IMG/VR virus record: IMGVR_UViG_3300025141_014484
Location: 545-64,544 of that record
DNA: 64,000 nucleotides
Source: a virus
Taxonomy: Duplodnaviria; Caudoviricetes
Strand: one strand, 5' to 3'
The notes under the pieces are model-generated. The model was not told the origin of the DNA and ran no database searches. It saw nothing but the letters and a program-made list of their open reading frames with translations. Shown here one piece after another: positions 20,722 through 61,209 of this stretch (position 1 is its first letter; the number at the start of each line of letters is the position of its first letter). The translations under genes and the position numbers were made by a program.

Positions 20722-20773
20722 GTCAACAGAAATATTTAAAAATACGAAAACAGTTATGATCGGAGAAAAAACA

Positions 20774-21355: not shown

Positions 21356-21409
21356 TATGTATATCTGTGATAAGTCAATAAATTGCGATAGTTTTTTTAA
21401 GGAAGAGGG

Positions 21410-23104: not shown

Positions 23105-23106
23105 AA

Positions 23107-23916: not shown

Positions 23917-23917
23917 A

Positions 23918-24835: not shown

Positions 24836-24837
24836 AT

Positions 24838-36866: not shown

Positions 36867-38684
36867 ATGGCTGACGACAGAGCAAATAATAGTACAAAGA
36901 CACAAAAGATAGTAAACTACTCTTCACGGGACTTCAATTCTATCAGAAATGGTCTTGTAGAATATGTAAAACGATATTACCCTGATTCATTTAAAGATTT
37001 TGCGACCGCTGGGTTCGGATCGTTGGTGCTTGATAGTGTTTCTTATGTAGGCGATGTATTATCGTTCTACATGGATTATCAGCTAAACGAGACCTTTTTA
37101 GACACCGCAAGTGAATATGATAATGTGGTCAAGATCGCGCGACAACTCGGTTATAAGTATGCTGATAAATTCTCATCAGTTGGAGCAGCCCAGTTCTTTA
37201 TTGCAATTCCAGCCGGCGCAGGAGGTGCACCCGACGAAGACTATATGCCGATCCTTCAAGCTAATTCAACTTTTACCACCTTAGCTGGCCAGAATTTTAC
37301 TTTAGTCGAAGACGTTAACTTTGCCACCACAACAAATCAGATTATTGTTAACAAAATAAACGAAACCACTGGAATGGCATCAGAGTATGCTGTAAAGGCT
37401 ACAGGAAAAGTTATTTCTGGTAGGGTGGAACGTCAGGAGATCTTGATCGGCCCGTTTGAAAGGTTTAGAAAAGTTCAATTGGCAGATCCAGATCCTATAG
37501 AAATTCTGAGTGTTAGAGATTCCGCCGGCCATAGATATTATCAAGTAGATCATCTGGCACAGGAAATTGTTTTCAAAGCAATTAGGAATAATAATTCGGA
37601 TAAAAAAACTGTCCCCTCGATTTTGAAGGCTATTCCGGTAACCCGTAGGTTCGTATTGGAACGAGATAGAACTACAGCGTATCTACAATTTGGATATGGT
37701 TCGGAGACAGAACTTACTAATGAATCAGTAGTGGATCCGAGTAAAATCACCCTGCAATTGCACGGCCGTGATTATGTAACACAGCAAGAGTTCGACCCCA
37801 CCAATTTAACTGAGACTGATAAGTTTGGTGTGGGCCCATCAAGCACCCGACTGACCGTAATTTATCGTGTGAATGATTCCACAGATGTTAATGTGGCAAC
37901 AAGCACTCTTACTCAAGTCGGCCTCCCTTTATTAAAGTTTCCCAACAGGCAAAGCTTAAATGCAACGACGCGTCGCGTAACCGCGGCCTCCCTCGAAGTA
38001 ACAAATGAGGACCCTATAGTGGGAGATATATCTGCGCCGACCACCGCTGAATTAAAACAAAGAGTCTTTTCACATTACGCTGCCCAGAATCGGGCGGTTA
38101 CAATTGAAGATTATAAAGCAATATCATATGCTATGCCACCTAGTTTCGGGGCCATATCAAAGTGTAGTTTCGAAAGAGATTTCGACTCGTTTAAAAGAAA
38201 TTTAAATATGTATGTGATGTCAACCGACGCGTCAGGGTTTTTAGTAGCTTCTTCAAAAACTATCAAGGAAAACTTAAAAACGTGGCTAACGCAATATAAA
38301 ATGATTAACGATACAATTGATATTCGAGATGCCAAGGTAGTAAATTTTGGTATTAATTTTTCAATTGTAGCGGATTACGAGGAAAACAAGTTTAACGTTG
38401 TGAACTTGGCAACCCAAAGATTGCAAAACTATTTTCAAAGACAAAAATATGATATATCGGAGCCACTCTACATAGTGGATATCTATAAAGAGTTAAATCG
38501 CGTCCCGGGCGTCGTCGATACCGTAGATGTTCAGATATTGCACAAACAAGGCGGCCGCTATTCTCAGGCTGATTTTGATTTTGACACTGCTTTGTCGGTT
38601 GATGGTCGTTACCTTGGCGGTGAGATTGATACAATTTTTGAAATCAAGTATCCCTTTACAGACGTTCAGGGAAGCGTTACCTAA
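36867..38684 (+). CDS. Baseplate wedge subunit, T4 gp6/baseplate-J-like
   Basis: NYSSRDFNSIR, YVGDVLSFYMD, NETFLDTA, ARQLGY, LQFG, AQNRAVTIEDY. Confidence 0.88.
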   Translation: MADDRANNSTKTQKIVNYSSRDFNSIRNGLVEYVKRYYPDSFKDFATAGFGSLVLDSVSYVGDVLSFYMDYQLNETFLDTASEYDNVVKIARQLGYKYADKFSSVGAAQFFIAIPAGAGGAPDEDYMPILQANSTFTTLAGQNFTLVEDVNFATTTNQIIVNKINETTGMASEYAVKATGKVISGRVERQEILIGPFERFRKVQLADPDPIEILSVRDSAGHRYYQVDHLAQEIVFKAIRNNNSDKKTVPSILKAIPVTRRFVLERDRTTAYLQFGYGSETELTNESVVDPSKITLQLHGRDYVTQQEFDPTNLTETDKFGVGPSSTRLTVIYRVNDSTDVNVATSTLTQVGLPLLKFPNRQSLNATTRRVTAASLEVTNEDPIVGDISAPTTAELKQRVFSHYAAQNRAVTIEDYKAISYAMPPSFGAISKCSFERDFDSFKRNLNMYVMSTDASGFLVASSKTIKENLKTWLTQYKMINDTIDIRDAKVVNFGINFSIVADYEENKFNVVNLATQRLQNYFQRQKYDISEPLYIVDIYKELNRVPGVVDTVDVQILHKQGGRYSQADFDFDTALSVDGRYLGGEIDTIFEIKYPFTDVQGSVT

Positions 38685-40252
38685 TGGCTATTCTAAGATA
38701 TTCTGCTAGCGCAGACACCACCATAACAAATGCATTCAAAGCTGACCTGACCAATAGAGGTACTGGCTCGAATATGGGCTATGCTGATTCCTTAGAAATA
38801 TTTTCTATATACGCTCAAACTTCTGGCTCAAGCACCGGCCGCTCGGCCGAATTGTCTAGGACCCTTGTTCAGTTCCCTGTTTCTAGGGTTATTTCTGATC
38901 GCGCCGCAGGCACCATACCTGCCTCCGGAAGTGTATCTTTCTATCTGAGAATGTTTAATGCAGAACACCCATTTACACTTCCTCAAGACTTTACTCTAAC
39001 CGTTGCACCCGTCTCACAATCCTGGGTAGAAGGAAGCGGCCTTGATATGGATGAGTATAAAGACCTGGGCTCCGCAAACTGGATGCAGGCAAGAGTATCG
39101 GCATCCACAGATGGTGGCGCCTGGAGCAAAGTAGGAGGCGATTATTTAACAGCTTCTAATCAACAGGTGTATTTCCAGCGGGGGTTTGAAGATTTAGAAG
39201 TTGATGTGTCAGATACTGTCGAGCTTTGGATTGCTGGAGTCGACCCTGCCTTCGCTACCAACTATGGCTTCGGGGTTCACTTAACAGCAAGCCAGGAAGC
39301 CTATCACTCTAGTTCTACTGGGCTCGATGGTCCCGCAACCGGAGTTATTCAAAATACGTCTGGTTCGACAGATTCCTACTATACAAAGAAATTCTTTGCT
39401 AGGTCTTCACAATACTTTTTTAAACGGCCGGCCCTAGAGGCCCGATGGGACTCTCGGGTTGAGGATGATAGAGAAAATTTCTTCTATTCTAGTTCTATAG
39501 CCCCCGCTGCAGATAATTTGAATACACTTTATTTGTATAACTATATTCGTGGCCAGCTTGTGAACATACCTGGCCTTTCGGGGGATAATTTGTCGGTATC
39601 GTTTTATTCCTCTTCTGCGGCTGCCGCCCCGGATGGGCCAAAGATTGTGCTCGCCGGAGGCGGTGATATTGTAGCAGATCTCGATTTGAACGCGACGGCA
39701 AGTTTGGTTAGCGGCAAGACGGGTATTTATTCTTGTGATTTGGCGATAACAGCCGCCGCCGGGACTGATATGCTCGAAGCAATACATGATGTTTGGCACT
39801 CAGGCGGCGTTGAATATTTCACTGGGTCTTTCTATCCGGAGAAGTTTCCTGTTTATGATGTAGCTCCAACATTCACCAGGGTGACTAGTTGCAGAAATCT
39901 TAAGAAATCGTATTCTCCACTAGATAAGGCGCGCTTTAGATTTTTTGTGCGTTCTAGAGACTGGAGTCCTACAATATACACGGTCGCAACGGCTAATAAT
40001 CCAACGGATATAATAACTAGCGCGTCATATAGTATAGTGAGAGTAACAGATAATTATCAGGCCGTAGCTTATGGCACTGGTTCCGATCTTAGCACCTATA
40101 TGTCTTATGACAAAGATGGAAGTTATTTTGATTTAGACATGTCGCTACTTGAGCCGGATTATATGTATGAAATTAAATTATCTTATTATAATGATAGTAT
40201 AGGAGATTGGCAGGAGCAACCACAAACGTTTAAATTTAGGGTTGAAGAATAA
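38684..40252 (+). CDS. Putative virion structural protein (Ser/Thr/Gly-rich)
   Basis: Translationally coupled to gp6; beta-rich composition; many TGS/SGS/TAS tripeptides. Confidence 0.7.
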   Translation: MAILRYSASADTTITNAFKADLTNRGTGSNMGYADSLEIFSIYAQTSGSSTGRSAELSRTLVQFPVSRVISDRAAGTIPASGSVSFYLRMFNAEHPFTLPQDFTLTVAPVSQSWVEGSGLDMDEYKDLGSANWMQARVSASTDGGAWSKVGGDYLTASNQQVYFQRGFEDLEVDVSDTVELWIAGVDPAFATNYGFGVHLTASQEAYHSSSTGLDGPATGVIQNTSGSTDSYYTKKFFARSSQYFFKRPALEARWDSRVEDDRENFFYSSSIAPAADNLNTLYLYNYIRGQLVNIPGLSGDNLSVSFYSSSAAAAPDGPKIVLAGGGDIVADLDLNATASLVSGKTGIYSCDLAITAAAGTDMLEAIHDVWHSGGVEYFTGSFYPEKFPVYDVAPTFTRVTSCRNLKKSYSPLDKARFRFFVRSRDWSPTIYTVATANNPTDIITSASYSIVRVTDNYQAVAYGTGSDLSTYMSYDKDGSYFDLDMSLLEPDYMYEIKLSYYNDSIGDWQEQPQTFKFRVEE

Positions 40253-40259
40253 TTAAAAC

Positions 40260-43200
40260 ATGAGCCTCGCAGGACTTTTTAAAAACATCGCTGTAACAAA
40301 AATAGTCGATGATAAAACAGCAGAGGAAATAGGCCGGATTGTCGAATCGTCCGACTATCATAAAGCTGACATAATCGACGAGAAGCGGTATGTTCCGCTT
40401 ATTGATTTTTCTGAACCTAAAAACTTTGCTAAGTATGGTTCCGCGGAAAAATACTATGAAGACTCCTTTACCTATGTTTCCTCCCTTTATCCTTATGATG
40501 GTTCGTTGGCTGAAAAGCTGCAGTGGAAGAACAGCGGCTCTTATCTAGACATTTATATATTTGATAGGGAATACCCCCGAACCAATGGTTATATAAATCT
40601 TTCGTATGATACCTGGGGGACACCCGCCTATGTACCAACTCTTGCAGCCTATGATGGGTATGGAATCCCCAATGCTAGCACAGATTATGAATATATTTCG
40701 GTTGACGGTGGCCCTGGTTTGGGAGGTGGGCCCCAGGCACAATCAGCCAACATTTATGATCCTGCTAATAATCGCGAATCTAATCTAGAGTTCGACTTAA
40801 CAAAGGGTGTCACTGTCGAATGCTGGTTAAAGAAGTCTGCGTTTAATACATCTAATACCGAAAAAGAAGTTTTAATTGATTTATGGAACAATGAGCTTAG
40901 TAGTTCTAATAGCTACGGGCGCTTTAGATTAGAGTTGACTGGCACCACAGCTTCCCCGGCATGGACGGCAACAGTTTTGTCCGGCTCGGACCCCACAGTT
41001 AATGGATTTCAGTGGCAAACGTTTGGTACAGGAAGTAGTTCAGATATTGCTGACGATCTGTGGCACCATTATGCATTTAGTTTCTTGTCGGCTTCCGCCG
41101 GCGTAACAGCCAAATATTATATCGATGGCAGCCTGCAAACCACGGAAAATCTAGGAACGGTAGGGATAAATAAGATCACCGGCTCGATGCAGGCGTATAT
41201 TGGAGCTCTGATAACGAAACCATCTGGATCCACCGCGCCATCGTCAGCGATAGCGAAATCCGGCAAAATGTCAGCATCTCTAGACGAGTTCAGATATTGG
41301 AAGACACAACGCAGCTCTGAGAAAATAGGGAAATACTGGTTTACACAAGTAGGTGGCGGCACTAACACTGATTTAGCCAACACCGATCTAGGTGTTTATT
41401 ATAAATTCAACGAAGGCATTACAACGACCGCTTCTGTTGATAGTGTGGTGTTGGATTATTCTGGTCGTGTTTCTAATGGTACGTGGACTGGATACTCCTC
41501 CGGGGCGCGAAATACGGGTTCGGCCATAGTAGAGGCTAGCGCGTCTGCGACCGAGTTTAAAGATCCCATAATATATGAAGCTCACCCCGACGTACAATCA
41601 AAACTCGCCACTCTTAAACTAACGGGGTCGGTACATGATAACGACAACTCTTCGCTGCTATTTTCCTATTTTCCTTCCTGGATGCAATCGAGAGATGTTG
41701 AGGACGGCTCAGAACTTAAAAAACTAACTCAGATAATGTCAAGCTATTTTGACACCCTGTATCTTCAAGTAGAAGATTTTGCAAATATAAAGAATATTAG
41801 ATATGTAACAGGGTCTGTTCTTAAAGAAAATACGTTAGGATCGCGCCTATTGGCTTCCAAGGGGCTGCTTGCACCGGAGTTGTTTTTAGACGCTGATATT
41901 TTAGAACAACTGGGTGATCGAAGCCTTGAGAGAGAATATAGAGATAGTCTAGCTAACATTAAGAATTCAATATATCAAAACATTTATAACAACTTATCAA
42001 ACATTTATAAGTCCAAAGGAACGAGGCAGTCATTTCGAAACTTATTGAGGTGCTTTGGGGTTGATGAAAAAATATTTAAACTCAATGTTTATGGCAACAA
42101 CGTTCAATATGATATAAGAAACAACAGGGAACTGTATAGTTCTAAAAAAAGATATGTTGATTTTAGCGTTAACGCCAGGTTTGATGCTACTCTTTTTCAG
42201 CAGACATCTAGTCTAGATTCCAACACGGTTGGGTTTATAACTGGTTCGTCCCAGCTGACCGGTGGCTTTGCTACTACCCTGGAAACATATGTGCAATTTC
42301 CTCACAAACCGGATCCATTTGAAAAGAAATATTCTGATTATGAGTTTAATTATTTAACATCCTCATTGTTCGGTGTTCACACAGTCGACCAGGCCCATCC
42401 TGAGCTATTAAGCTGGAATAGTCCAGATAATACCAATTTTCAAGTTTATGCTATTCGTGATGAAATGAATTCAACAGATGCTTGCTTCATTTTATCGAGC
42501 AGCGCCGGCGGCCTCATCCCGACTCTGTCTTCCTCCTATTATGACGATGTTTATTCAAATACAAATTGGGTTTTTGCTGTTACAGTGAAACCAGAAAAAT
42601 ATCCTCTGGTAAATTATATAACTGGATCCCATGAAGACATCGACAACAATGAGTTTTATATTGTGGAATTTAAGGGCACTCAAGTTGAAGCCGGCCTAGA
42701 AGTCAATTCATTTTTTGTTAGTGCTAGCGTAAACTGTTCGCTTGTACAGGGCGACGGTCCGGGCTTCGTAACCGGCTCTAAAAGAGCATATGTCGGCGCC
42801 CACCGTCAAAATTTCACCGGATCGGTCCTGCACAAGAGTGATGTCAGGGTTGGGTTCTGTAGGTATTGGCTTGATGATATAGTCCCCTCACAACTTGTTG
42901 CTCATGGTATGGATATCCATAATTATGGTACGGAAAATCCATCTCGAAGCCCATATCTCTTTCAAAATAATTTAGAATTCAATATTGATTTTGTAGAAGA
43001 AGACACGCTAGCTCTTAATTGGGACTTCGAAACCCTGACAGGCTCGAACTCTACGGGCACCTTTACGACTATAGACTTTTCATCAGGGTCCACGATCATG
43101 CAATCAGAGCAGTTTGGGATATTGGGTGATATTCTGGGCGCCCAACATTCTGGATATGGTTATGGTTTCCCAGTTAACACCACGAGCTCGATCTCTGTCG

Positions 43201-49691: not shown

Positions 49692-50791
49692 TGCAGTTTT
49701 TTGATGATAAAGAAGAAGTAATGGATGTTATCCTTACCCCCTTTGGAAAGCACTTGCTTTCGCAAGGACGTCTGGATCCCACATATTATGCTTTTTATGA
49801 TGATGGCATACTATATGATTCTGCTTGGGCTTCTGGGTCCAATGAAGTGCAAAACAATATTGAGACAAGAATTCAAAATGATACACCAAGAACAAAACAA
49901 CAATCTGTTTTTAGTGGGGTAGAAACGAATGTAAAGGTGAGGAATGAATTAATACGAAACGCACTGAGCGCCTCGGGGTGGTCTCCGATCGACGGCCTAG
50001 GCGACACCCAGAACACCCCATATGTTGCACAAGATACTGAGAACAATAAAATTTATAATCAAGAAGCGCTCCAGCAAACCGGTGATAGGTTTGACTTTAT
50101 GAATCTACCCCTCGGCCGTTCTGCGATCAATTCTAAAAAGTTGCCCGCGTGGAACCTGAGTATGCTTAAAGGGGAGATCTCCGGCAGCTCAGGCTCTGTC
50201 GCGACCACTTCTGGCTTTGAACAAATTCCACAAATGAATATTACCATGAAATATAAGATATATGTTGATGAAATGGGAAACAACCAACCGGCCCTGGCTT
50301 CCAATAGTACAACTGTAGCTTATAGTAACACTATCTTCCCCACTCCAGAAACAACGCCACCCTTAAACGTAAGCGGCGAAATAAGTCCAGATCAATTTAC
50401 AGAAATAGCTTCTCTCATATTTGATGATCAAACGTATTTTTCGATTCAAAATGGTAAGATAATTATTGATCTTTTGGAAGAAAATGTTGATTTCAAAAAA
50501 GAGAACTTTGATATCCAAGTTTTCATAAGCGGTTCAACATTTGATGGTAGCGACGCCCAGCCTATGCAGTTGTATTATATAGCAGATGAGTTCGCCCCTC
50601 CTCAGGTTGATGATGTGGAAAAATATTTAACCATAAGAACCGATAAACAAATTTCAGATTCCCGAATCAGCTTCTCAAACCTTAAGACAACCACGGGCCT
50701 ATTAACAGATAGCAGCACCACAAACGTGATCAGCACTCGGGAATTCTTAATTAAGGATCTTTATGGGCCCGAAGAGGATATATGTGACTAA
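49691..50791 (+). CDS. Putative baseplate/tail structural protein
   Basis: N-terminus (DVILTPFGKHLLSQG...YYAFYDDGILY) is paralogous to the 57813 gene. Confidence 0.65.
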   Translation: MQFFDDKEEVMDVILTPFGKHLLSQGRLDPTYYAFYDDGILYDSAWASGSNEVQNNIETRIQNDTPRTKQQSVFSGVETNVKVRNELIRNALSASGWSPIDGLGDTQNTPYVAQDTENNKIYNQEALQQTGDRFDFMNLPLGRSAINSKKLPAWNLSMLKGEISGSSGSVATTSGFEQIPQMNITMKYKIYVDEMGNNQPALASNSTTVAYSNTIFPTPETTPPLNVSGEISPDQFTEIASLIFDDQTYFSIQNGKIIIDLLEENVDFKKENFDIQVFISGSTFDGSDAQPMQLYYIADEFAPPQVDDVEKYLTIRTDKQISDSRISFSNLKTTTGLLTDSSTTNVISTREFLIKDLYGPEEDICD

Positions 50792-53700
50792 TGAACCTAT
50801 TAATCGGCTCCAGCTCTGAAACACTGAATATTAACCAGACTATTGTTAATAAAGATAGCACCGGATATACCCTGGATATAAAGGTTGGTGTTGTGTATTC
50901 TAACCCCGCAAACACATTTGCGGGCAAAAATTTGTTTATAATTGCTTCCACTAGTGATGGGATGACAAACGAATTTATGACTAACCCGAACGCGGCCATA
51001 CCGTATATGAAAGGACTAAAGCAAAGTCAAGAGATTATGGTGCAGTCTTATGGTATGGGAAGCAGTGGTCAGTCTCTTCCGACTACTCAACCATCTATGG
51101 GTTATCTTATTAAGAGTTTTACAAAAAGAATAGAAATAAACAAAACAAATATTGATGATCTAACAATCTTTGCCGGCATCTATAAAGTTACACACAAAAA
51201 AGTGGGCGATATATATTCTATTATTGCAAACGATACCCTAAGAATTTTTAAAGACGGAAATGTGCCCGAACAGAACTTGGTTTTATTTGAAAATGAGGCA
51301 CGAACCAAGCTATGGATTGGCAACGCATTTCAGGCCACCTCGGGTCTCTGGTATAAGTCTGCATCTGGTCCCGTTAAAGAGTCCAATCAGCTCCATGTCA
51401 AAATGGTTCCTAACACAAAAGTCACGTATGAAAGTGACATAGCAGAAAAAGTACTACAGCTCTCAAAAAGTAATTTATTTAACCTGAATAAACTTGTGAA
51501 TTCAAAACAAGCAATAGTGAATAAACTAAAGTCCGAAACAAGAAACTATTTTTCACCTCTTTACTATGCCAAAACACGAAGTTTATCTCTTCCGTTATCA
51601 TTTTCGTTTAATCGACTAGCGTTCTATAGGAATAATGGAGCGTTTTCACATCTTATAAAAAACGATGCATCACTTATAGAATCACTAGACATTGTTGCCA
51701 CGAGGATCCTGCGTAAGAGGGTGACGGTAAATCGTCCCCAAAATCGGCTAACTGCAGTTGGGCCAACAAAGGACTTTGATGGTATTGAAAGTGTTGTAAC
51801 CAACAGTCCGGATTATGTTAACTTTTTACAAAGTACAAATATCATTGATATAGTAGCCGACGACAAAGAGATGAACGATATTACTTATGGATTATATGCA
51901 TACGGGGTAGAATTAACAATTCTCGACAATACTCATAATAAGTTACAAAGTGTTTTAAACCAAAATCAGATAGGCCTTCGTCCTCGTGTTTCCCAAATAG
52001 AAGATATTTATCTGGAGATGATACAACCTGGGCACTACAATGCATATAGTGATTGTTTAACAGAGGAATATAAGAGTCTTTATACTACATCTGACCGCGA
52101 AACAAACGTCATAGAATGTATAAAATCATATATAAGCGCCCTCTCTTTGTTCCACGCTAACTTCGCGTCCGGGTTTGGCTCCACGCCCGACCTTCTGGCT
52201 GTTCAAATTTATTCAATGATAAACCCCTTAACCAATGGCCCTGTGGCTCTCTCTGGTTTAATAAAGCTAGTTAAGGATTTAATAAGCCAAATTAGTAGAA
52301 AGATATATGCTGGAAATGTTCCTTCATCCACGGCACAAAATGTTACCACTAAAAGTTCCAAATTGGGTTCGGGAGCAAGACTTATCAAAGTAAAACACTA
52401 TTTTGACAGTATTGTGGATGCCGATGACCTTACTAATAAGGGCTATGATTATTTTTCTACGAGCGAAGAAGACGTAACAAATCCTGTTTATGCACCATTT
52501 AGATATATCTCTTATGATAATTTCGCCAATATTATCACCCTAGAAGAGGAAAAATATAATGATTTTACTTTTACAGCTGCTGATGTGATAGCTATTACAC
52601 CCAATTATTTTAACCTGGGGGGTAGTGATATAAAAATAAATTCAAATGATGCGAATCAAGATAGTCTTAATTCTCTTGTGGGAACTTCGATTCTAGCAGC
52701 CAACAAGTACATGAATTCGCCAATAGACTTCCAGCAATTCTCCATAAATAATAACTCTACGTCTAAGAGCACAACCTCTCTATCAATTTTAAATAATCAG
52801 TTAAAAGTCATGGAAAAACAAAATTGTGTGGTGTCGGTTGACACAGGGGGAGATAGTTTATTCTCCTCGCTATCGCCAGGAAGCTCTCTATCAGACAGCG
52901 CTCTGCTCGATATAGCAGAAAAATTTGATGAATCATCACCGCTTATAATCAATAAGGGAGGGTACGCCTCTTTCTCTAGTTTTTTTAATAGCGTAAACAA
53001 CAACAACTCGGGGGAGAAATTCAATAAGTTTGTAGGTAATCTTAATGAGAATATTTTAACCTATTTAATTCAAACGGATTATTTCGCGGCCCCAGCAGGC
53101 CCAACAACTCCTAGAATGGCTATCAAAAATTTTACTGATAAGAAAGTTTTTACTTCTAAAAACTCCACTATTGCGACTTTTAAAGCGGACGCTGCAAAAA
53201 ACACTAATATCGGAAGAAGCCGCGGCGCACAGATAGTTGCCACAGCTCTGATCGGCGGCCCCGTGACCACCGGGCCCGTGCTTCAAACTCTTAGTTATGG
53301 AAACTTATTTGATACGCCGGTTTCAGCGTCCCTAACGACAACAGCTGCCATTAAATATGGAAATGTTAAAAAAGTTCAATATTTTGCTGGTTATAGAAAA
53401 CAAAATAATTCTATATTTATGAAGGATCCTGTTTGGATCGATTTAACTGGTACCACGTTGGCCAACGCGCAGTCATCCGGGCGTCAACTTTTATGTAGGA
53501 TTGCGGAATCATATTCTGAGTTTAGTAAATATGCTGGTATAGAATCACCAGTGTATGATAGAATTTTTATTATAGGCCTCCAGCCGACTTTGCCCTCGTC
53601 GTCGCCCACTAGCGTTGCCGGCTTTACTACTTTGCCAGAAGGTAATTTTAGTTCTATGGAAGATATGATTGAAATGGATCAAAGTATGTTACAATATTCG

Positions 53701-54015
53701 CAGGCGTCCAACGGTGACTACAATCCTGATCATCCTCAGGAAAATGGAAATGGCAATGGAAATTCCAGCCTGTATACAAACGGGGGCGACTTCTTGCTTC
53801 CGAATGGTGACCAATATATTGGTTTCTATCATATTTATTATATGGCAAGCGAAAATAAAAATATTGCAATGGTTGGGCCCACACATTCTTCTGCCCCACA
53901 TGAAAAACTGGCGCCTGTGTCGAACAAAGCGCGGCGACTACTTCGAGATACCCCACCTCCGGGCCAGACTTCAGACCAAGGAGGCACAGGCCCAACCGGA
54001 ATGGGAGGGTACTAA
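50791..54015 (+). CDS. Putative virion structural protein (1074 aa)
   Basis: Coupled ORF in the structural block; discrete C-terminal LYTNGGDF...YIGFYH...GPTH module. Confidence 0.65.
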   Translation: MNLLIGSSSETLNINQTIVNKDSTGYTLDIKVGVVYSNPANTFAGKNLFIIASTSDGMTNEFMTNPNAAIPYMKGLKQSQEIMVQSYGMGSSGQSLPTTQPSMGYLIKSFTKRIEINKTNIDDLTIFAGIYKVTHKKVGDIYSIIANDTLRIFKDGNVPEQNLVLFENEARTKLWIGNAFQATSGLWYKSASGPVKESNQLHVKMVPNTKVTYESDIAEKVLQLSKSNLFNLNKLVNSKQAIVNKLKSETRNYFSPLYYAKTRSLSLPLSFSFNRLAFYRNNGAFSHLIKNDASLIESLDIVATRILRKRVTVNRPQNRLTAVGPTKDFDGIESVVTNSPDYVNFLQSTNIIDIVADDKEMNDITYGLYAYGVELTILDNTHNKLQSVLNQNQIGLRPRVSQIEDIYLEMIQPGHYNAYSDCLTEEYKSLYTTSDRETNVIECIKSYISALSLFHANFASGFGSTPDLLAVQIYSMINPLTNGPVALSGLIKLVKDLISQISRKIYAGNVPSSTAQNVTTKSSKLGSGARLIKVKHYFDSIVDADDLTNKGYDYFSTSEEDVTNPVYAPFRYISYDNFANIITLEEEKYNDFTFTAADVIAITPNYFNLGGSDIKINSNDANQDSLNSLVGTSILAANKYMNSPIDFQQFSINNNSTSKSTTSLSILNNQLKVMEKQNCVVSVDTGGDSLFSSLSPGSSLSDSALLDIAEKFDESSPLIINKGGYASFSSFFNSVNNNNSGEKFNKFVGNLNENILTYLIQTDYFAAPAGPTTPRMAIKNFTDKKVFTSKNSTIATFKADAAKNTNIGRSRGAQIVATALIGGPVTTGPVLQTLSYGNLFDTPVSASLTTTAAIKYGNVKKVQYFAGYRKQNNSIFMKDPVWIDLTGTTLANAQSSGRQLLCRIAESYSEFSKYAGIESPVYDRIFIIGLQPTLPSSSPTSVAGFTTLPEGNFSSMEDMIEMDQSMLQYSQASNGDYNPDHPQENGNGNGNSSLYTNGGDFLLPNGDQYIGFYHIYYMASENKNIAMVGPTHSSAPHEKLAPVSNKARRLLRDTPPPGQTSDQGGTGPTGMGGY

Positions 54016-54021
54016 TAAATA

Positions 54022-57000
54022 ATGTCTCGCCATATTATACTTTTTGATCGTAATTCTCTCGTTGGGGTGGCTCGAAAAACCCGGCGTTCCGGCTGGGAAC
54101 TCACCACAGATGCCGCCAGAGGCCATCCGATGATTAGTCGGCAATCCCCCGCGACCGCAGATTACTTTAGGAAATCTGCGGCACTATATTATAGTTGGGA
54201 TGAGGGCACCAGGCCCGGGGACTATAGTAAATTACGTATTTTAAGTGGCCGAGCGCGCCGCGGCGAGCTTTGGCGGCTTGGCAGTGTCAACGAGACAGTT
54301 GGGCTTAATGTAACAAACCAAGTCGATTTTGAGTCGAATATACTTTTGCCGCCGCTCGCGACAGACTTACAGGAGGCCTTCGATTCCTTCGCTCAGAGCG
54401 CTTGGGCCACTTGGGGCAACGCAGGGGCGCAACTGGACATTCTTTTTCGAGCTGGCAACGGATCAGCATGGGGAGAAGACATAGTAGTAAAGATCCAAGG
54501 AGATAATAGTGCGTGGGTGCAGAGATCCAACTATGCCGGAGTTTCTGGGGTCTTAAGGGAGCTGTTTAATGAGCCTTATTGGTCTAATTGGCAAGCTTAT
54601 GTGATGGGTGGCTTGGCCCTAGGGGACAATGATGAAACAGAACAGGATATAGAGGGCGGACATATTGATCGCTCCGGCATCCCGGGCGTCTTCGGCCCCG
54701 ACATGGTCAATAGACCTTATCTTGATCACAATACTAAAATTAATTTAATGTTGCCCCAAGACATAAGCACGAGCGCCACTTATGGATATTATAGTGCATT
54801 TTTTGATCAATTGAAAAATAATCCAAACGTGAAGGAAGTTTACATTCCCAATTTTTATTTGGTAAGTTCTATTCTATCAGCGGGAGGTAACTATTCCTAC
54901 CCAACCTTATATAATAATTATAATCAGGATCAGTCACCCGTCGCCCCCTTGCCGGCGTCTGTTAGTAAAGTAAAAGAACTTCTATCTGAAGCCGTAGCAT
55001 CGTCCCATCCCAGTGGCGATGATGTTCTAGACTCGTCTGTACCGCTCACGATTAATAATATTCAGATATCCCCCCAGACACCAAATTCCTTACTATCCCG
55101 CTTCGCGCGCGCCGACTTCACCGCAACTAGTTCTCTTGTCGCGGTAGAAAATGCAAATAAACATATTGGCCTGACAGCCCAGATGGTGAAATCGCAGGAG
55201 ACCACACAGACGTCTATAGTATCGGATATGAATGTGCAGGATAATATTTACCCCTGTTCTATAAATATACAATTTTCATCGCCAACGGCCGGCACTGAGG
55301 AACCCGAGATAGTGCAGTCCTTAAGCTTAGATGGCAATGATTCGCGTGAGACCTTCTATAATTTTGTATTGTATGAGGTTATGAAAGCCAACATCTTGAA
55401 CTATAAAAATGAGCCTGCGGACGCTGCTGTCCCGCTCTATGAAGAAATTCCTTTTTCTGCGAAGATCGTATACGACGCGGACATTCGCTATAGAGGCATT
55501 GATTGGACGGGCACCGGCCCATGGGAGCAACAATCGCCGGGGAACACAGCCCGGGAGGAGTATCCACTTCGAACTATCGATTTTGCAAATATGTTTAGAA
55601 ATATATATCAACAACAAGATTATAATTTTTATGGTTCCGGATCAAACTATAATGGATTTATAGGGCAAACAGAGGCATATAATGTTGTGGATGGAAAAGG
55701 AATTATTGTTGGCCAACGGTATAAGCCGATCGGCCCGACCGCGAACGGGAATTTCGCCGAACCGGGCGCCATCGATTTTCATAATGCCGCCTTCGGCCTT
55801 CTGGGCGCGGCCAACTCAATCGAATTCTACACGGATCTTGCAGGTTTTACTAACGAAAAGATGCGATCAGTTTATGATATTTTCAGTCATACATACGCGT
55901 TCGCTGAACCACTCGTTTTTAAATTAGATAAACACGAAGTCTTACCTAATGGCGACGTAAAAGGGGAGCCGATCCAAAGTATTTATATACCAAAAACAGG
56001 CGATGTAGTAAAATACAAAGATACACAGGTTTTTGCTGGTAAACAATACAAGTATAAGTTCTACTCTTATAATTTAGTAGAAGGGAACAGCTATTTATAT
56101 GATTCTCCACAGGTATACCCAACGATCCAGGGGGCATATCCAAGTCAACTTGGGCGACGTTTGGGCTTCTATACGGACCAAAGCCCCGGCGGAGTCAATG
56201 TAGGCAGAATCTGGAATGATCTGGGTCAACAGGACCTTGTTAAAAATGTATATGTTGGGAAGCTACTAAATTTCACCGGTGAACACACCCACAGCGTTAA
56301 GCATTTGGATGACAGCGACGCGGCTTTATATTCAGACCTTCCCGCTTCCCCCTACTTTGTAGATGTCCAGCGCGACGATATCAGTACCAATATGGTGGGG
56401 GTCGAAGTCTCGGACCCCGGCCCCATGGAGTCGCAGAAGGTGCACATCCCCTTCGGCCCTCAGGACAATCCGACCTACCTCGGGTTCACCACCATTGATC
56501 GACAACCCGAAGGCCTTATCCTCTCCATCGAAAACGCCTTAAATGCCACCTCTACGGGCAATCCCTGGAAGGTAAGGTTCTTTGTCGATAAGGACAATTG
56601 GGGCCAAGGAAGATTCGTGATCGCCCACCGCAGCGCCCTCGTGCTCTCCACCGCCGACCCCAACCTCTTCGCCCACCGCAGGGGTCTCTGGGAGGCCCTT
56701 AGCTGGTCCCAAGAGTATGAAGACTTAGCTCCTACCTCCGGCCAATTCCACCTGCCCGACGGTTACCTCTGGAGTAATTATTTGGATTTATTCGGCTTAG
56801 GCACAGCGCGACATTCGGTTTTGTCAGGCGGCCCTGGCCCTCGATACAACCTGATGTTTGGAACCGGCCCACATAGCCCCAATCCTACCATTCCATGGGA
56901 TGAAAACGAAGCTCAAGAGAGGGGAACCGCCAAGGTTACCGTAAAAAATCGAAAGTCTCTAAAGATAATTGAATTAGAAATTGGCGAAACTAATCCCGTA

Positions 57001-57771
57001 GCAGTTACAGACTTGCCGCCCCAGTTCCCTAATGTGGATATTTTCCCGCTCAGAGGAGTCAACAACAAAATTAAAATACTCTTGAACGAATCCAATCATA
57101 CAGATTCCTATGTTCCTATTATTATTAATGCTTCTGATGAACAAATTTTTGAAGATGTCAGAATTGCTCAAGGGCGCAACATTGGCGAAGGCCTTCTTTT
57201 TGGGTCAGACGATAGCAAGATTCAATTTGAAATTTATCGAATCGAAACAGAACCAACTTCTTATGCTGATTTTTCTGGTCATCGAAGCCATAATCTTGAT
57301 ACTGTGACACCGTCGGGTATAAGCGTCGAAAGCGCTAGCACTGTGGACATAATTCAACCTAATACAGTATATTATTATTGCTTTAGGACTGTGGATAAAA
57401 ATGGTTATATTTCCAACCCTAGTCCTGTTCTAAAGGTACAAATGATCGACGATAATGGTCGTATTTACCCCATAATAGAGCCATATACTGTTGAGCCGAA
57501 AGAAATCAGAAAGACAGAAAAATCTTTTAAAAGATATCTAGAGATAGATGCCTCCCTAGAGGAGAAAAATATTAATTTAGGATCCCCGCCAGATCTTTCG
57601 TCGGCTGGCTCGTTGGTGTTCCCTCCAACCGTGGAAATGGGAGACGTAATATGGGGTAGCGCAACCACCTTTAAGGTAAGGATAATTAGCAAAGACACGG
57701 GAAGAAAATTGGACTTGAATATAGATTTTGATATAGAAGCAATACCTAATCCTAAATTACAAGGAAATTAA
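54022..57771 (+). CDS. Putative virion structural protein (1249 aa) with FN3-like segments
   Basis: YKDTQV..GKQYKYKF and IQPNTVYYYCFRTVDKNGYISNPS (fibronectin-III-like strand patterns). Confidence 0.65.
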   Translation: MSRHIILFDRNSLVGVARKTRRSGWELTTDAARGHPMISRQSPATADYFRKSAALYYSWDEGTRPGDYSKLRILSGRARRGELWRLGSVNETVGLNVTNQVDFESNILLPPLATDLQEAFDSFAQSAWATWGNAGAQLDILFRAGNGSAWGEDIVVKIQGDNSAWVQRSNYAGVSGVLRELFNEPYWSNWQAYVMGGLALGDNDETEQDIEGGHIDRSGIPGVFGPDMVNRPYLDHNTKINLMLPQDISTSATYGYYSAFFDQLKNNPNVKEVYIPNFYLVSSILSAGGNYSYPTLYNNYNQDQSPVAPLPASVSKVKELLSEAVASSHPSGDDVLDSSVPLTINNIQISPQTPNSLLSRFARADFTATSSLVAVENANKHIGLTAQMVKSQETTQTSIVSDMNVQDNIYPCSINIQFSSPTAGTEEPEIVQSLSLDGNDSRETFYNFVLYEVMKANILNYKNEPADAAVPLYEEIPFSAKIVYDADIRYRGIDWTGTGPWEQQSPGNTAREEYPLRTIDFANMFRNIYQQQDYNFYGSGSNYNGFIGQTEAYNVVDGKGIIVGQRYKPIGPTANGNFAEPGAIDFHNAAFGLLGAANSIEFYTDLAGFTNEKMRSVYDIFSHTYAFAEPLVFKLDKHEVLPNGDVKGEPIQSIYIPKTGDVVKYKDTQVFAGKQYKYKFYSYNLVEGNSYLYDSPQVYPTIQGAYPSQLGRRLGFYTDQSPGGVNVGRIWNDLGQQDLVKNVYVGKLLNFTGEHTHSVKHLDDSDAALYSDLPASPYFVDVQRDDISTNMVGVEVSDPGPMESQKVHIPFGPQDNPTYLGFTTIDRQPEGLILSIENALNATSTGNPWKVRFFVDKDNWGQGRFVIAHRSALVLSTADPNLFAHRRGLWEALSWSQEYEDLAPTSGQFHLPDGYLWSNYLDLFGLGTARHSVLSGGPGPRYNLMFGTGPHSPNPTIPWDENEAQERGTAKVTVKNRKSLKIIELEIGETNPVAVTDLPPQFPNVDIFPLRGVNNKIKILLNESNHTDSYVPIIINASDEQIFEDVRIAQGRNIGEGLLFGSDDSKIQFEIYRIETEPTSYADFSGHRSHNLDTVTPSGISVESASTVDIIQPNTVYYYCFRTVDKNGYISNPSPVLKVQMIDDNGRIYPIIEPYTVEPKEIRKTEKSFKRYLEIDASLEEKNINLGSPPDLSSAGSLVFPPTVEMGDVIWGSATTFKVRIISKDTGRKLDLNIDFDIEAIPNPKLQGN

Positions 57772-57783
57772 AAGATAGAGAAA

Positions 57784-57793
57784 CTATTTATAA
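57784..57793 (+). promoter_or_regulatory. Putative phage late-promoter motif (CTATTTA)
   Basis: ACTATTTATAA in the intergenic gap, 29 nt before ATG 57813. Confidence 0.55.
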
Positions 57794-57812
57794 TGAACAA
57801 GGATATAATATT

Positions 57813-58751
57813 ATGGCTTTTTTAGATAACTCGGGCGACATTATTTTGGACGCTGTGCTAACAGATACTGGGCGATTGCGCCTGGCAAAGGGTAACGGCA
57901 CCTTTAATATTGTGAAGTTTGCCTTAGGGGATGATGAAATAGACTATGGACTATACGACAAGAATAACGCCGGCGGTCAGACATACTATTCTCTTACCAT
58001 TTTACAAACACCTGTTTTGGAAGCTTTTGCTAATAACTCATCAAGCATGAAATATAAATTGCTCTCTTTAACAAGAAATGACTTTTTATATTTACCGATA
58101 ATCAAGCTTTTTGATGATGGTAATAGCGCTCGCCATGGATCCGGCACCTCCGCTAAATATATTGTAGCAGTTGACAAGAACACAGTTGACACAATAGTAG
58201 GAACCGATCAGGTGCTGACAGCCGGTGTACTAAATGGGTTTCAACCTGGCCAAAGCGATCATTTGATAATCACTGATCAGGGCCTAGATACAAGTGCAAT
58301 TTCGCAAGATGTACCACTTGATTCAGATTTGATTGAGACACAGTATCTGGTTGAAATGGATAATCGATTGGGTAGCCTCGTCTCCCCGGTGGGCTCATCA
58401 CCTATAAATGCATCTCAAAGTTTTGTTGATGATGATAACATAGCGTCTTATATCATGACCTTAAATACAGACAGCGATTATGTAACAGAGTTGCCTACGG
58501 TTATCGATTCCTCCACTGGTGGCACGAAGATCAGCGGCCCCGTGGGAACGCGATTGCGCTTAAGAATGGCTGCATCAACCGGACTACGAACAACAGACTA
58601 CTTATTTACGGTCCTTGGCAACACTGGAACCGAAGCTATTGGAAATCTAGCTTCTGCGACCTATAAATACATTGATACAACAGTGTCTATTTCTGGTCAG
58701 ACTACAGGGTACCGCCTTGATCTACCGGTTAGATATGTTAAGAAGATATAG
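57813..58751 (+). CDS. Putative baseplate/tail structural protein
   Basis: ILDAVLTDTGRLRLAKG...IVKFALGDDEIDY resembles tail-fibre/baseplate attachment N-termini. Confidence 0.7.
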   Translation: MAFLDNSGDIILDAVLTDTGRLRLAKGNGTFNIVKFALGDDEIDYGLYDKNNAGGQTYYSLTILQTPVLEAFANNSSSMKYKLLSLTRNDFLYLPIIKLFDDGNSARHGSGTSAKYIVAVDKNTVDTIVGTDQVLTAGVLNGFQPGQSDHLIITDQGLDTSAISQDVPLDSDLIETQYLVEMDNRLGSLVSPVGSSPINASQSFVDDDNIASYIMTLNTDSDYVTELPTVIDSSTGGTKISGPVGTRLRLRMAASTGLRTTDYLFTVLGNTGTEAIGNLASATYKYIDTTVSISGQTTGYRLDLPVRYVKKI

Positions 58752-58761
58752 GGAATAAAAA

Positions 58762-59841
58762 ATGGCTAGTATATATAAATCTTTCACCTCCAACGATATT
58801 ACAACTGTAAGGGACATGCTGCATGAAGCGGTGCCTTTGACGGGCACTATTGTATCTGGAACTTATAATGATGGGAATATTAAAGTATATTCTCATGATA
58901 TGTTTGAGTCTGTTTTCGACTATCCGTATCTGAGTTCGTCGGCCAATCATATTTTTGATTTGACAAATGGCTATTCAAACAACTCCGCTCTCTCAGGAGC
59001 AACGACGGCTTATAATGAAAGTAAAAAAATCAACGTGTATAATGAAATGGCTCAAATTCTTGCAGGATTTGATGAAACTGGTGCAGTTCGAGAGTTTGAC
59101 CGCGATGGAGACCTGACTGGCGGGGACAAGATTCAGGATGCCTTCTTCGTTAACTTTGCGAGATTACTAACAAAAGACGAGATTAAAAAACAATCTTTCA
59201 CGCTTCAGGTGCTTACAGGTAGCATGGTAACTTCCTCAATGGATGTGTTAACAATTTCCGATTATGGGGCCCTAACTTCATATAAAACCAACTCGCCAGC
59301 CGGCGAATATGGAATCCTGTATACTGGTTCTGCCGCGGCCGAAAATTCCGGCGTAGGACTTATTTACTATCAGGCCGGCATCGCGGTGCTAACTGCCAGC
59401 ATATTTGATGGCGACAATTTAACTTCAGCGCGCGGCGCGACTGGATACAATATCGGCCCAAATATGGCCAATGATGCGACAGTTTCGGATAATTATGATA
59501 ATGTTTCGCAACTGTTTGTTTCTGGCTCAATTTCCGGTTCAGCCGACGCCTTCAGAAATAGATTATATAATATTTCTTTCAATAACACAATTGAGATAAA
59601 TTCAACCATCTACTTTGCCCGGGCAAACAATAATGAGTTTAACTATTCAAGTAACCCAACTTATTTATCGTCTAGCACAATAGTGGTAAAGAACAACGCT
59701 CAAGAGCTCCCTCTGTCGTTTGTGACGTCGGTCGGCCTTTATTCAGCCGACAATGAACTATTGGCTAATGCAAAGTTGTCCGAACCTCTAGAGAAAAATC
59801 CCACAGATGAGTTTGTACTAAGAGTAAGATTAGATTATTAA
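58762..59841 (+). CDS. Putative baseplate/tail structural protein
   Basis: C-terminal FNYSSNPTY...VGLYSADNELLANAKLSEP...RVRLDY is shared with the next gene. Confidence 0.7.
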   Translation: MASIYKSFTSNDITTVRDMLHEAVPLTGTIVSGTYNDGNIKVYSHDMFESVFDYPYLSSSANHIFDLTNGYSNNSALSGATTAYNESKKINVYNEMAQILAGFDETGAVREFDRDGDLTGGDKIQDAFFVNFARLLTKDEIKKQSFTLQVLTGSMVTSSMDVLTISDYGALTSYKTNSPAGEYGILYTGSAAAENSGVGLIYYQAGIAVLTASIFDGDNLTSARGATGYNIGPNMANDATVSDNYDNVSQLFVSGSISGSADAFRNRLYNISFNNTIEINSTIYFARANNNEFNYSSNPTYLSSSTIVVKNNAQELPLSFVTSVGLYSADNELLANAKLSEPLEKNPTDEFVLRVRLDY

Positions 59842-59850
59842 GACAATGCG

Positions 59851-61209
59851 ATGGCTTATATTTTTAAATTCAAAAGCAGTGATAAGGTCATCAACCTTGT
59901 AAAGACTTTTCCAAAAGCTTCTTTTGCATTTTACGGCGGTAACTCTTATTACAATAATCAATATTCCCTAAGCGGAGCTTTTACTAGCTCAATTCTCGCT
60001 GCCCCTTCGGGATATATTTCTTTATACGAGCAAAGTGTTGACCGTGATGGAACGATAAATTTTGACTCTTCTCTGCTCCTTAACGCTCAGGTCAGAGATC
60101 CTTTTGGGTATGCGGTTTCCGCGTCTGTCGATCCTACAACCTTTTATATTGGGAATAACCCAACTTATGCTGTCTTTAAAGTAAAAGACGGAACGCGTAT
60201 TAATTTTAAGACAGTTTCAAAAGCCGAGTTCAACACAACAGAGGGTGGAACGCCGCTATATAGTACCTATCCCCTAACGGCATCATTACAAAAGCATTAT
60301 TATACTGCAGCAATGTCAAGGCATACAAGATCTTATTTGGACCTGGGGCCCAACACCAACCCGCTCGTCATCGCCGATGACTTGCCTGTCACTGGTTCAG
60401 TTACTTATTTGTATGCTCTTAAAAACACGATGAATTATTACTCTGTTATGAGCAGAAATTATCAATTTTCCTCCTCGGTGAGGGACCTTGGCGCAAGCGG
60501 CTCATCCCCGGGCGCAACAGAGGTTGGCCTCGTTACAATTCCCTCTATTTTTTATGGTGATAATATTGACAAGGGAACTGTTAATCTTAAGTTTTATGTT
60601 ACGGGGACACTCATCGGCGAACTTCAAGACACAAATCGAAATGGAGACCTAATCCAAATAGGACCACAATCTTCACAGGGTTCTGGCTCTGTTGCTGGAG
60701 TCGTTTTATATAAAGAAGGGTTTATAGTTTTAACCGGCTCCTGGGACCTGTCTAGTGGAGCACACACCGAGAACTATGGAACCACCACCAATGTTCCATC
60801 GTGGCTGACCTTTGCTCAAACCATTTCTTCCTCAGCGCCACTTGCGGTGAGTTCTAGTTGGGCACTAGATTTTAACGGGTCACATAAGGTTCCCACAATG
60901 ACTTTATTTGCGCATGCTAAAAAGGGTGACCTGAACCACTCGAACAACCCGACCTATGTGAGCAAGAATACTCAAATTTTATTAAGCTCAGGATCCGAAG
61001 GATATACACAAAACCCAGAAGCCGCTATAGCGAATGTGGTAAGTTCTTCTTTCCCCGATCCAACTGGATCATTCGTAAAGACAACTTACATATCAAAAAT
61101 TGGTATTTACGATAAAAATAAAAATCTAATTGGAATTGCAAATTTGGCAAAACCAGTTAAAAAGATGCCGCACCGAGACTTTACTTTTAAGATTAAGCTG
61201 GATATCTGA
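59851..61209 (+). CDS. Putative baseplate/tail structural protein (paralog of the upstream gene)
   Basis: LNHSNNPTY...IGIYDKNKNLIGIANLAKP...KIKLDI. Confidence 0.7.
   Translation: MAYIFKFKSSDKVINLVKTFPKASFAFYGGNSYYNNQYSLSGAFTSSILAAPSGYISLYEQSVDRDGTINFDSSLLLNAQVRDPFGYAVSASVDPTTFYIGNNPTYAVFKVKDGTRINFKTVSKAEFNTTEGGTPLYSTYPLTASLQKHYYTAAMSRHTRSYLDLGPNTNPLVIADDLPVTGSVTYLYALKNTMNYYSVMSRNYQFSSSVRDLGASGSSPGATEVGLVTIPSIFYGDNIDKGTVNLKFYVTGTLIGELQDTNRNGDLIQIGPQSSQGSGSVAGVVLYKEGFIVLTGSWDLSSGAHTENYGTTTNVPSWLTFAQTISSSAPLAVSSSWALDFNGSHKVPTMTLFAHAKKGDLNHSNNPTYVSKNTQILLSSGSEGYTQNPEAAIANVVSSSFPDPTGSFVKTTYISKIGIYDKNKNLIGIANLAKPVKKMPHRDFTFKIKLDI

Follow-up and report, generated by a model that had tools for sequence, protein, structure and literature searches.

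An ordered serine/threonine tripeptide on virion proteins of a T4-related phage lineage as a candidate O-glycosylation sequon

The virus record IMGVR_UViG_3300025141_014484 (Caudoviricetes) of IMG/VR is a 64.5-kb contig that constitutes the whole assembly, and positions 545 to 64,544 of it (64,000 nucleotides, referred to here as the window) were analysed. The phage is marine and uncultured, and five of its structural proteins, from the baseplate and the outer tail, carry the tripeptide [ST][GAS]S about four times as often as their composition predicts. The motif is real and strictly ordered, it is specific to one lineage of T4-related phages and conserved in position, it is dispensable for the fold as judged from orthologues that lack it, and it lies in what alignments and a structure model indicate to be loops. 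The chances are about even that it is a surface O-glycosylation sequon served by a pair of GT4 glycosyltransferases which the lineage carries. Modification of the motif as such, a sugar as its nature, the GT4 pair as its agent and the choice between the two hydroxyl residues are all inferred from the sequences compared. The literature searched contains no description of the motif or of virion glycosylation in this lineage, whose cultured members include Rhodothermus phage RM378 and Flavobacterium phage immuto.

Excess and order of the tripeptide in the window

Copies of [ST][GAS]S were counted in each protein and compared with shuffles that preserve its composition (2000 shuffles; 500 for the largest protein). 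The proteins concerned, named by their length in amino acids (aa), are encoded as follows.

36867..38684, + strand: gp6-like baseplate wedge protein (PHROG baseplate wedge match); 1 copy against 1.34 in shuffles; the internal negative control
38684..40252, + strand: p522, 522 aa, directly after gp6 in the baseplate module; 15 copies against 3.56 (z 6.1; count reached in 0 of 2000 shuffles); homologous to a 386-aa protein of Microcystis phage Mel-JY01
40260..49691, + strand: p3143, giant structural protein; 51 copies against 13.65 (z 10.5; 0 of 500 shuffles); homologous to a 1265-aa protein of immuto and a 1336-aa protein of Mel-JY01
49691..50791, + strand: p366, 366 aa; 5 copies against 1.13 (z 3.7; 9 of 2000 shuffles); the weakest excess among the five
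50791..58751, + strand: p1074, p1249 and p312, three structural genes without excess (4 copies against 4.92, 3 against 3.15 and 1 against 1.24)
58762..59841, + strand: p359, 359 aa; 8 copies, each preceded by a hydrophobic residue, against 2.15 (z 4.2; 2 of 2000 shuffles); paralogue of p452
59851..61209, + strand: p452, 452 aa; 13 copies against 3.09 (z 5.7; 0 of 2000 shuffles)

When the preceding hydrophobic residue is made part of the motif, the 8 copies in p359 stand against 0.67 in shuffles (z 9.5). Eight neighbouring structural open reading frames (ORFs), namely p462, p332, p2166, p133, gp6, p1074, p1249 and p312, have no excess (z -1.3 to -0.1), and the 28 ORFs at 115-25692, which comprise the enzymes of a sugar island described below and four ORFs upstream of it, hold 11 copies in sum against about 10.5 expected. 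The five motif proteins contain 9-12% serine. A first-order Markov model, which already absorbs the motif's own dipeptides, predicts 46.8 copies for the five proteins together and 92 are observed, about twice as many. An earlier reading of the window made from the sequence only had counted the copies by eye, and its counts for the five proteins and for gp6 are exact. It had also held that the enzymes contain few copies, which they do, and had proposed enrichment beyond composition as a test, on which the five proteins reach z values of 3.7-10.5. The range over which it placed the phenomenon (38684..61209) stands as far as the five enriched genes are concerned; the three genes at 50791-58751 inside it have no part in the excess.

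The motif has a fixed direction. When all tripeptides of the five proteins are ranked without prior choice, TGS leads (25 copies against 2.9 expected), with SGS (18 against 4.1), SAS (15 against 4.1) and TAS (11 against 2.9) also high, and the control set yields nothing comparable. The 25 copies of TGS compare with 4 of SGT, 1 of GTS, 5 of STG, 7 of GST and 3 of TSG, and the 11 copies of TAS with 2 of SAT. Only serine serves at the third position: TGT (4 against 2.3 expected) and TGD (2 against 1.9) are close to expectation, and [ST][GAS]T does not depart from expectation in any of the five. Of the 92 copies, 62% follow a hydrophobic residue (background 32%), a tendency that the sequence-only reading had noticed, and the residue after the motif is often A, V or I. 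The motif is a directional pattern at the level of the protein, hydrophobic-[T/S]-[G/A>S]-S.

Codons are mixed at all three positions, with serine drawn from both TCN and AGY, and this diversity rules out a DNA repeat. A duplication of domains inside p3143 is likewise ruled out by a comparison of the protein with itself, in which BLAST found no internal repeat at E <= 1e-3. The earlier description of the copies as dispersed and variously encoded thus holds. Those in p3143 cluster at residues ~90-975, 1316-1451, 1890-1973 and 2209-2893, and there are none in its Laminin_G_3 domain (1545-1688).

All large ORFs of the window lie on the + strand. The phage itself is roughly 150-190 kb, so that the window represents only part of it, and no capsid or tube genes are found within the window. 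Structural genes start at 27.5 kb with the 2166-aa protein and with gp25-like and gp6-like baseplate wedge proteins (PHROG), followed by the proteins of 522, 3143, 366, 1074, 1249, 312, 359 and 452 aa and then by a RuvC-like gene and a primase. None of these eight proteins has a PHROG match, and their sole Pfam match is Laminin_G_3 in the giant p3143. The proteins p1074 and p1249 (50791-57771), which are flanked by motif-rich genes, are probably distal fibre or receptor-binding proteins. In BLAST comparisons with relatives, p1249 matches only over its C-terminal ~270-310 residues.

The motif among relatives and its absence from some orthologues

By gp6 the nearest named phages, at about 30% identity, are immuto, Mel-JY01 and LR756508, an uncultured phage of 484 kb. 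RM378 is linked to the same lineage through the C-terminal domain of p359 (~230 aa), which also occurs in proteins of Mel-JY01, immuto, RM378 and LR756508. The gene order after gp6 is common to the window, immuto and Mel-JY01. Most of 21 syntenic proteins after gp6 in immuto and Mel-JY01 show the excess (z 2.6 to 11, with the plain or the hydrophobic-prefixed motif); four of the 21 show none, and neither does gp6 of the two phages. The genome-wide median z is about -0.4 in immuto, Mel-JY01 and RM378, and ORFs of at least 150 aa with z >3 number 9 of 114, 13 of 155 and 7 of 95, respectively. The excess is ordered in these phages as well, TGS being compared with its permutations: 28 copies against 0-9 in immuto, 16 against 2-9 in Mel-JY01 and 21 against 5-9 in RM378, where the asymmetry is genome-wide and individual proteins are enriched (8 against 1.8 and 6 against 1.2).

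The tail sheath is enriched in both immuto and Mel-JY01 (10 against 3.9 and 11 against 3.0). In both sheaths every site falls at residues 62-443, in the N-terminal variable part, and the conserved C-terminal sheath core domains have no sites beyond their start. A neck protein and a head-decoration-like protein of Mel-JY01 are also enriched, as is a 373-aa protein of immuto (17 against 2.9). The enriched set in these relatives is one of virion-surface proteins.

The excess is reproduced in uncultured relatives. Homologues of the family are very common in ocean metagenomes (3484 and 5112 at E <= 1e-5 among the candidates scored), and among the best 120 homologues of each protein the excess is present in 119 of 120 for p452 (z >3) and in 120 of 120 for p522, or 239 of 240 together. 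Through gp6, 48 IMG/VR contigs were found and split into a closer and a distant group by identity. ORFs downstream of gp6 hold 1670 copies against 528 expected in the closer group and 512 against 152 in the distant group (3.2-3.4x). ORFs upstream of gp6 hold 113 against 155 and 38 against 38, respectively (0.7-1.0x), and gp6 itself 29 against 63 (0.46x) and 20 against 23 (0.86x).

Outside the lineage the pattern was not encountered. Excess is absent or slight, and asymmetry of order absent, in the T4 proteins gp6, gp7, gp10, gp12, gp18, gp34 and gp37, in the giants of S-PM2 and in the large proteins of Ma-LMM01. Phage HTVC008M has a mild excess (12 against 4.6; 24 against 9.9), but it is unordered (TGS 11, SGT 18, GST 24) and reflects a general richness in S, G and T. 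No homologue of the window's GT4 was found at E <= 0.01 in T4, S-PM2, Ma-LMM01 or HTVC008M. Because the ordered excess is absent from these four phages, the motif is not a general property of phage fibres.

Individual sites are conserved in position. In the best 120 metagenome homologues, 12 of the 15 sites of p522 hold the motif in at least 88% of sequences and 11 of the 13 sites of p452 hold it in at least 62%. Within the alignment columns T and S alternate at the first position and G, A and S at the second, and the third position is serine in 67-100% of rows at most of the conserved sites. Such conservation would fit a structural role as well as a functional one.

Orthologues without the excess are informative in this regard. 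Contigs L110, L121 and L127 encode true orthologues that share 36-39% identity with p522 and 31-34% with the giant and have no excess, with 1 copy against 0.9, 2 against 1.5 and 1 against 1.4 in the p522 orthologues and 3 against 3.5, 8 against 4.5 and 14 against 11.6 in the giants. In contigs G012, G022, G026 and G028, where identity is 35-39% for p522 and 30-33% for the giant, the orthologues are at 0.85-1.45x expectation. In the p522 alignment the motif-poor orthologues have sequences such as 'eaa', 'ege' or 'igg' in place of sites, and a loop with three sites is deleted. For the giant, the 30 sites of the window protein in its first 1500 residues were compared: in G022 one of them reads as the motif, a charged or polar residue stands at 23, 2 fall in gaps and 4 have some other residue, and in G012 the corresponding numbers are 0, 17, 7 and 6. 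The giant of motif-rich L107, which is 37% identical, keeps the motif at 15 of the 30. Serine makes up ~10% of motif-rich orthologues and ~6% of motif-poor ones, and charged loop residues are replaced in the motif-rich proteins. Since true orthologues can do without the motif, its places being taken mostly by charged or polar residues or by gaps, the fold does not need it, and the sites vary as exposed loops would.

The sequence-only reading had expected the motif to map to surface turns of AlphaFold models. In an AlphaFold2 model of p452 (mean predicted local distance difference test score, pLDDT, 71.8) all seven sites in 10-residue blocks with a mean pLDDT >80 are in coil or at a strand end, and Foldseek found no match of this model in the PDB at E <= 0.001. 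Together with the replacements in motif-poor orthologues, the model points to exposed loops, both lines of evidence being indirect; p522 contributes nothing to it, its model being too poor. The motif does not behave as a turn motif, being absent from orthologues of the same fold and intolerant at its third position. The proposal of a selected recognition motif, as opposed to an effect of composition or a DNA repeat, is well supported by the order of the residues, the serine-only third position, the conservation in position and the dispensability in orthologues. Selection at the protein level is indicated by the mixed codons, by the lack of internal repeats and by a count twice the Markov expectation.

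The glycosyltransferase pair and the sugar island

The candidate enzymes are encoded near the start of the window, at 3.6-25.7 kb, where two GT4-type genes are followed by an island of ~19 kb of genes for sugar-nucleotide and tailoring enzymes (Pfam).

3628..4878, + strand: GT4 glycosyltransferase, 416 aa (Pfam Glycos_transf_1 and GT4-conflict); first of the lineage-conserved pair and candidate modifying enzyme
4878..6851, + strand: GT4-GT2 fusion, 657 aa (Pfam); second of the pair
6864..25692, + strand: sugar-nucleotide synthesis/tailoring island (Pfam) with dehydratases, aminotransferases, methyltransferases, GT2, GT10, GT11, NeuB and a cytidylyltransferase

The pair lies 33 kb upstream of gp6. 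Pfam matches in the ORFs at 115-29928 include no flippase, polymerase or polyprenyl-phosphate transferase. The E-x7-E motif, which marks active GT4 enzymes, is present in both GT4 domains of the window. Homologues of the GT4, 29-33% identical, occur in immuto, Mel-JY01, LR756508 and RM378; of the fusion only the GT4 half is conserved in relatives (34% identity in immuto and Mel-JY01, 42% in G012). The order PD-(D/E)XK nuclease, GT4, second GT4 is common to the window (2836-6851), immuto and Mel-JY01 (L205 7965-11884; L206 7376-12303), and variable sugar genes always follow it. Upstream of the nuclease the window encodes a fusion of PIN-domain and PhoH (438 aa, 669-1985) and a small cytidylyltransferase-like protein (115-633). 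The two GT4 genes are adjacent in the window, immuto, Mel-JY01, G012, G026, G028 and G003, RM378 has the first GT4 gene and a weak match to the second, and LR756508 has one GT4 gene.

Phage records with the p359 C-terminal domain are those of immuto (four records), Mel-JY01, LR756508 and RM378, and the same seven records give the best seven GT4 hits; the next hits are six records of four siphophages at 21-27% identity. The enzyme has been argued here to be phage-encoded rather than the host's because the hosts span Flavobacterium, Rhodothermus and Microcystis. Among 29 IMG/VR contigs searched, 19 have the GT4 at 51-74% identity. The 10 contigs without a match are fragments, and in the five that were checked (G002, G006, G011, G013 and G018) the place where the gene would lie is, or may be, beyond the end of the contig; the 29 contigs therefore offer no contrast with relatives that lack the GT4, all misses being fragments. 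Modification of DNA is a further role considered for such enzymes. A preprint on 7-deazaguanine modifications reports, from liquid chromatography with ultraviolet detection and mass spectrometry of immuto DNA, that fdPreQ1 replaces deoxyguanosine, and no word beginning with 'glycosyl' occurs in the accessible part of its text. For immuto, this result makes DNA glycosylation a less likely candidate for what the GT4 pair has been conserved to do.

The sugar genes behind the pair vary. Islands at the equivalent place but with different content are found in G003, immuto and Mel-JY01, those of immuto and Mel-JY01 being small. The island of motif-rich G003 (L203 537-19340), with ~20 kb of sugar genes, includes GT9, a B12/radical-SAM enzyme, a transaldolase, a class II aldolase, a PfkB kinase and an RpiB-cytidylyltransferase fusion. 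Its content, quite unlike that of the window's island, confirms that the island is swapped between relatives. In RM378 (L013 12383-16924) the UDP-galactopyranose-mutase-like Rm378p124 lies a few genes downstream of the p359-like protein, in the gene cluster of that protein, which hints that galactofuranose may be part of the RM378 glycan, if any is made. In the window, two overlapping ORFs of 117 and 271 aa with only ~1% glycine lie at 26305-27295, between the sugar island and the structural genes; the 271-aa ORF has no Pfam match.

Expansion of the motif into p522 and the giant goes with the presence of the sugar island. The island is absent from G026 (by Pfam) and from G012 (by ORF layout) and is minimal in G028 (by Pfam), all of which have an intact second GT4 gene. 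In G026 the GT4 pair is followed directly by an ORF of no recognised kind and an amidase-bearing homologue of the window's 462-aa protein, and in G028 there are only a sulfotransferase-like ORF (L196 14330-14977, after the GT4-GT2 gene) and two ORFs without a Pfam match. The distance from GT4 to gp6, taken by hand from contig coordinates, is 11-15 kb in five contigs (among them G012, G026 and G028), in which the motif ratio of p522 and the giant is 0.85-1.45, and 18-36 kb in 15 contigs, in which the ratio is 2.5-4.1 (Spearman 0.75 over the 20 contigs). In a tree of gp6 the motif-poor contigs fall into a single supported clade apart from G028, whose position is unresolved, with motif-rich lineages and outgroups outside; given this layout, the motif-poor state looks derived and seems to have arisen once or twice. 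The orthologues of p359 and p452 stay enriched in the motif-poor clades (8 against 1.4 and 4 against 0.7 in G022, 7 against 2.0 in G026 and 6 against 1.6 in G028). Our reading is that a core set of targets may be kept wherever the GT4 pair exists and that the motif may expand onto p522 and the giant where the phage makes its own sugars, with very few independent events behind it.

Candidate glycosylation, its rivals and what it would mean

The best reading is that the RM378/immuto-like lineage has a surface motif under selection on those virion proteins that face outward, and that this motif most likely serves as the acceptor site for O-glycosylation of a serine. The two soluble GT4s, encoded side by side behind the PD-(D/E)XK nuclease gene, would initiate a glycan at the motif while the virion proteins, folded already or still folding, are in the cytoplasm of the host, and the variable sugar island downstream would supply and elaborate it. 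The outcome would be a coat of glycan on the baseplate periphery, the short fibres, the outer sheath domains and the neck.

Systems of this kind have precedents. Mycobacteriophage virions are glycosylated by phage-encoded glycosyltransferases at the C-termini of capsid and tail tube subunits (Freeman et al. 2023, as cited in PMC12619734). The present lineage would resemble those phages in that soluble glycosyltransferases of the phage would modify its own structural proteins inside the host cell; GT4, GT4-GT2, GT2, GT10, GT11 and sugar-nucleotide enzymes are present and Pfam detects no membrane-transfer machinery. Distant homologues of the window GT4 adjoin capsid genes in actinophage phiPsal1. 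Unlike the C-terminal sites described for mycobacteriophages, the candidate sites here are internal loops, dozens of them, scattered over baseplate, fibre and sheath proteins and defined by an ordered tripeptide, and the glycosyltransferase genes lie ~30 kb from their targets instead of next to the capsid gene.

In GtfA/GtfB and SdgA/SdgB, an adjacent GT-B/GT4-type pair acts on short Ser-x-Ser-type contexts before the protein goes extracellular. These are systems of cytoplasmic serine O-glycosylation in Gram-positive bacteria, GtfA/GtfB acting on serine-rich-repeat adhesins and SdgA/SdgB on SD-repeats (outlined in PMC6973325 and PMC7948813). The phage lineage resembles them in that two adjacent GT4-type genes are conserved together. 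It differs in that their targets are long tandem low-complexity repeats, whereas the copies here are dispersed in folded domains with varied flanks and no repeats. GtfB is non-catalytic, whereas both phage GT4s keep the E-x7-E motif. The capsid of the chlorovirus PBCV-1 is glycosylated by virus-encoded cytoplasmic glycosyltransferases at non-canonical sequons, N-linked and on one capsid protein of a eukaryotic virus. The likeness lies in a membrane-independent machinery with its own sugar genes and virus-specific sites, and B736L of PBCV-1 is the second-best solved relative of the window GT4; the differences are a bacteriophage, candidate O-linked sites and many tail proteins. The general O-glycosylation sequon of Bacteroidota is D-[S/T]-[A/I/L/V/M/T]. 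In the phage motif, by contrast, the -1 position is hydrophobic in the proportion given above, with Asp not among the six commonest residues, and +1 is G, A or S by definition, and the motif also occurs in a cyanobacterial phage.

Several results weigh against glycosylation by the GT4 pair. By sequence the GT4s are generic: their best PDB matches are BshA (1.1e-9) and PBCV-1 B736L (1.3e-7), the match to GtfA/Gtf1 is marginal (4pqg, E 0.0093 over 64 residues) and no NCBIfam model reaches its cut-off, the SdgA model scoring 18.1 bits against a cut-off of 800; by sequence the GT4s have no significant place in either the GtfA or the SdgA family. Co-occurrence of the enzymes with the motif across related phages, which the sequence-only reading had suggested as a check, is found in that relatives with ordered excess possess both GT4 genes in every record that extends far enough (the second gene of RM378 being a weak match); it is lineage-wide and phylogenetically confounded, and it carries little independent weight because no member of the lineage is known without the enzyme. 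The GT4 is kept in G012, G026, G027 and G029 (at most 53% identity) and in G028, yet their p522 and giant orthologues have no excess, so that GT4 presence alone is no predictor and the link is not one-to-one. The contrast between island and motif, in turn, rests on only one or two evolutionary transitions. LR756508, with its one GT4, has a weak and unordered signal (6 against 2.3, 4 against 1.1 and 5 against 1.4; TGS 2 against SGT 2), and the p359-like protein of RM378 has a single copy. The putative distal fibre proteins p1074 and p1249 have no excess, and the orthologues of p1074, p1249 and p312 in G003 are likewise without it. The AlphaFold2 model of p522 is poor (mean pLDDT 57.4). The actinophages phiPsal1 and TJE1, which have distant GT4 homologues beside capsid genes, show no motif excess, a null result of little bearing on the GT4 family of the window.

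A structural or assembly motif is the alternative to be taken most seriously, although it is an unlikely one. Unmodified copies would form strand caps or inter-subunit hydrogen bonds special to the baseplate and fibre architecture of the lineage, and such a role would agree with the position of sites at strand ends in the p452 model, with their strong conservation within orthologue families, with the hydrophobic residue before and the A, V or I often found after, which is the pattern of a strand boundary, and with the sharing of some sites between paralogues, for instance after NPTY. A turn, however, should accept T, N or D at its third position, and the counts of TGT, TGD and [ST][GAS]T show no such tolerance; a tight turn seldom has Ala in its middle; orthologues of the same fold do without the motif and have charged residues or deletions at its sites; and the motif occurs in proteins without detectable mutual similarity, including the outer domains of the sheath, while it is absent from the baseplate and fibre proteins of T4, S-PM2 and Ma-LMM01. 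Rather less probable is a reader other than the glycosyltransferases, whether a kinase (phosphorylation), an acylating or ADP-ribosylating enzyme, or an assembly chaperone or protease of the phage. The data establish an ordered, selected and exposed motif and do not themselves identify what reads it, and G012-type phages keep both GT4s without excess in two target proteins. Against this, expansion of the motif tracks the sugar island, and the 64-kb window of the ~150-190-kb phage showed neither a kinase nor an acyltransferase nor any comparable candidate belonging to the core of the lineage.

It is improbable that the tripeptide is the by-product of selection for small, uncharged, hydroxyl-rich loops of low stickiness or high protease resistance, an unmodified polar patch. 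Motif-rich orthologues are indeed richer in serine (~10% against 6%) with charged loop residues replaced, but an effect of composition should not favour TGS over SGT, GST and STG, which it exceeds 4- to 25-fold by the permutation counts, and HTVC008M displays just such unordered richness in S, G and T, unlike the pattern here. Chance, or a bias of composition or dipeptides, has a negligible probability and is regarded as refuted. The five proteins are rich in serine, but no shuffle reaches the counts of the three richest proteins, the Markov expectation is well short of the observed number, and the excess is replicated in the metagenome homologues and in the 48 contigs.

Glycosylation of the virion by the GT4 pair would have consequences for how phage sugar genes are understood. 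Such genes in marine phages are usually read as tools directed at the host surface, and if the motif is a sequon, tens of kilobases of them would instead dress the virus particle, and this would matter for adsorption, for evasion of host defences or of grazers and for the stickiness of particles in the sea. A bacteriophage would then have its first defined O-glycosylation sequon, in effect a programmable 'glycocalyx' on the virus particle, and a short sequon with two soluble enzymes would make a useful tool for glyco-engineering. This reading is directly testable, as three relatives are cultured (Flavobacterium sp. LMO8 is the host of immuto, Microcystis that of Mel-JY01 and Rhodothermus marinus that of RM378). 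With slightly less than an even chance, the fuller picture may be that of an abundant and for the most part uncultured marine and freshwater T4-related lineage with its own sequon-directed O-glycosylation, in which the two conserved cytoplasmic GT4s would read hydrophobic-[T/S]-[G/A]-S loops of folded virion proteins, a hypervariable island would build strain-specific glycans and the number of sequons on the giant would track the capacity of the phage to make sugars.

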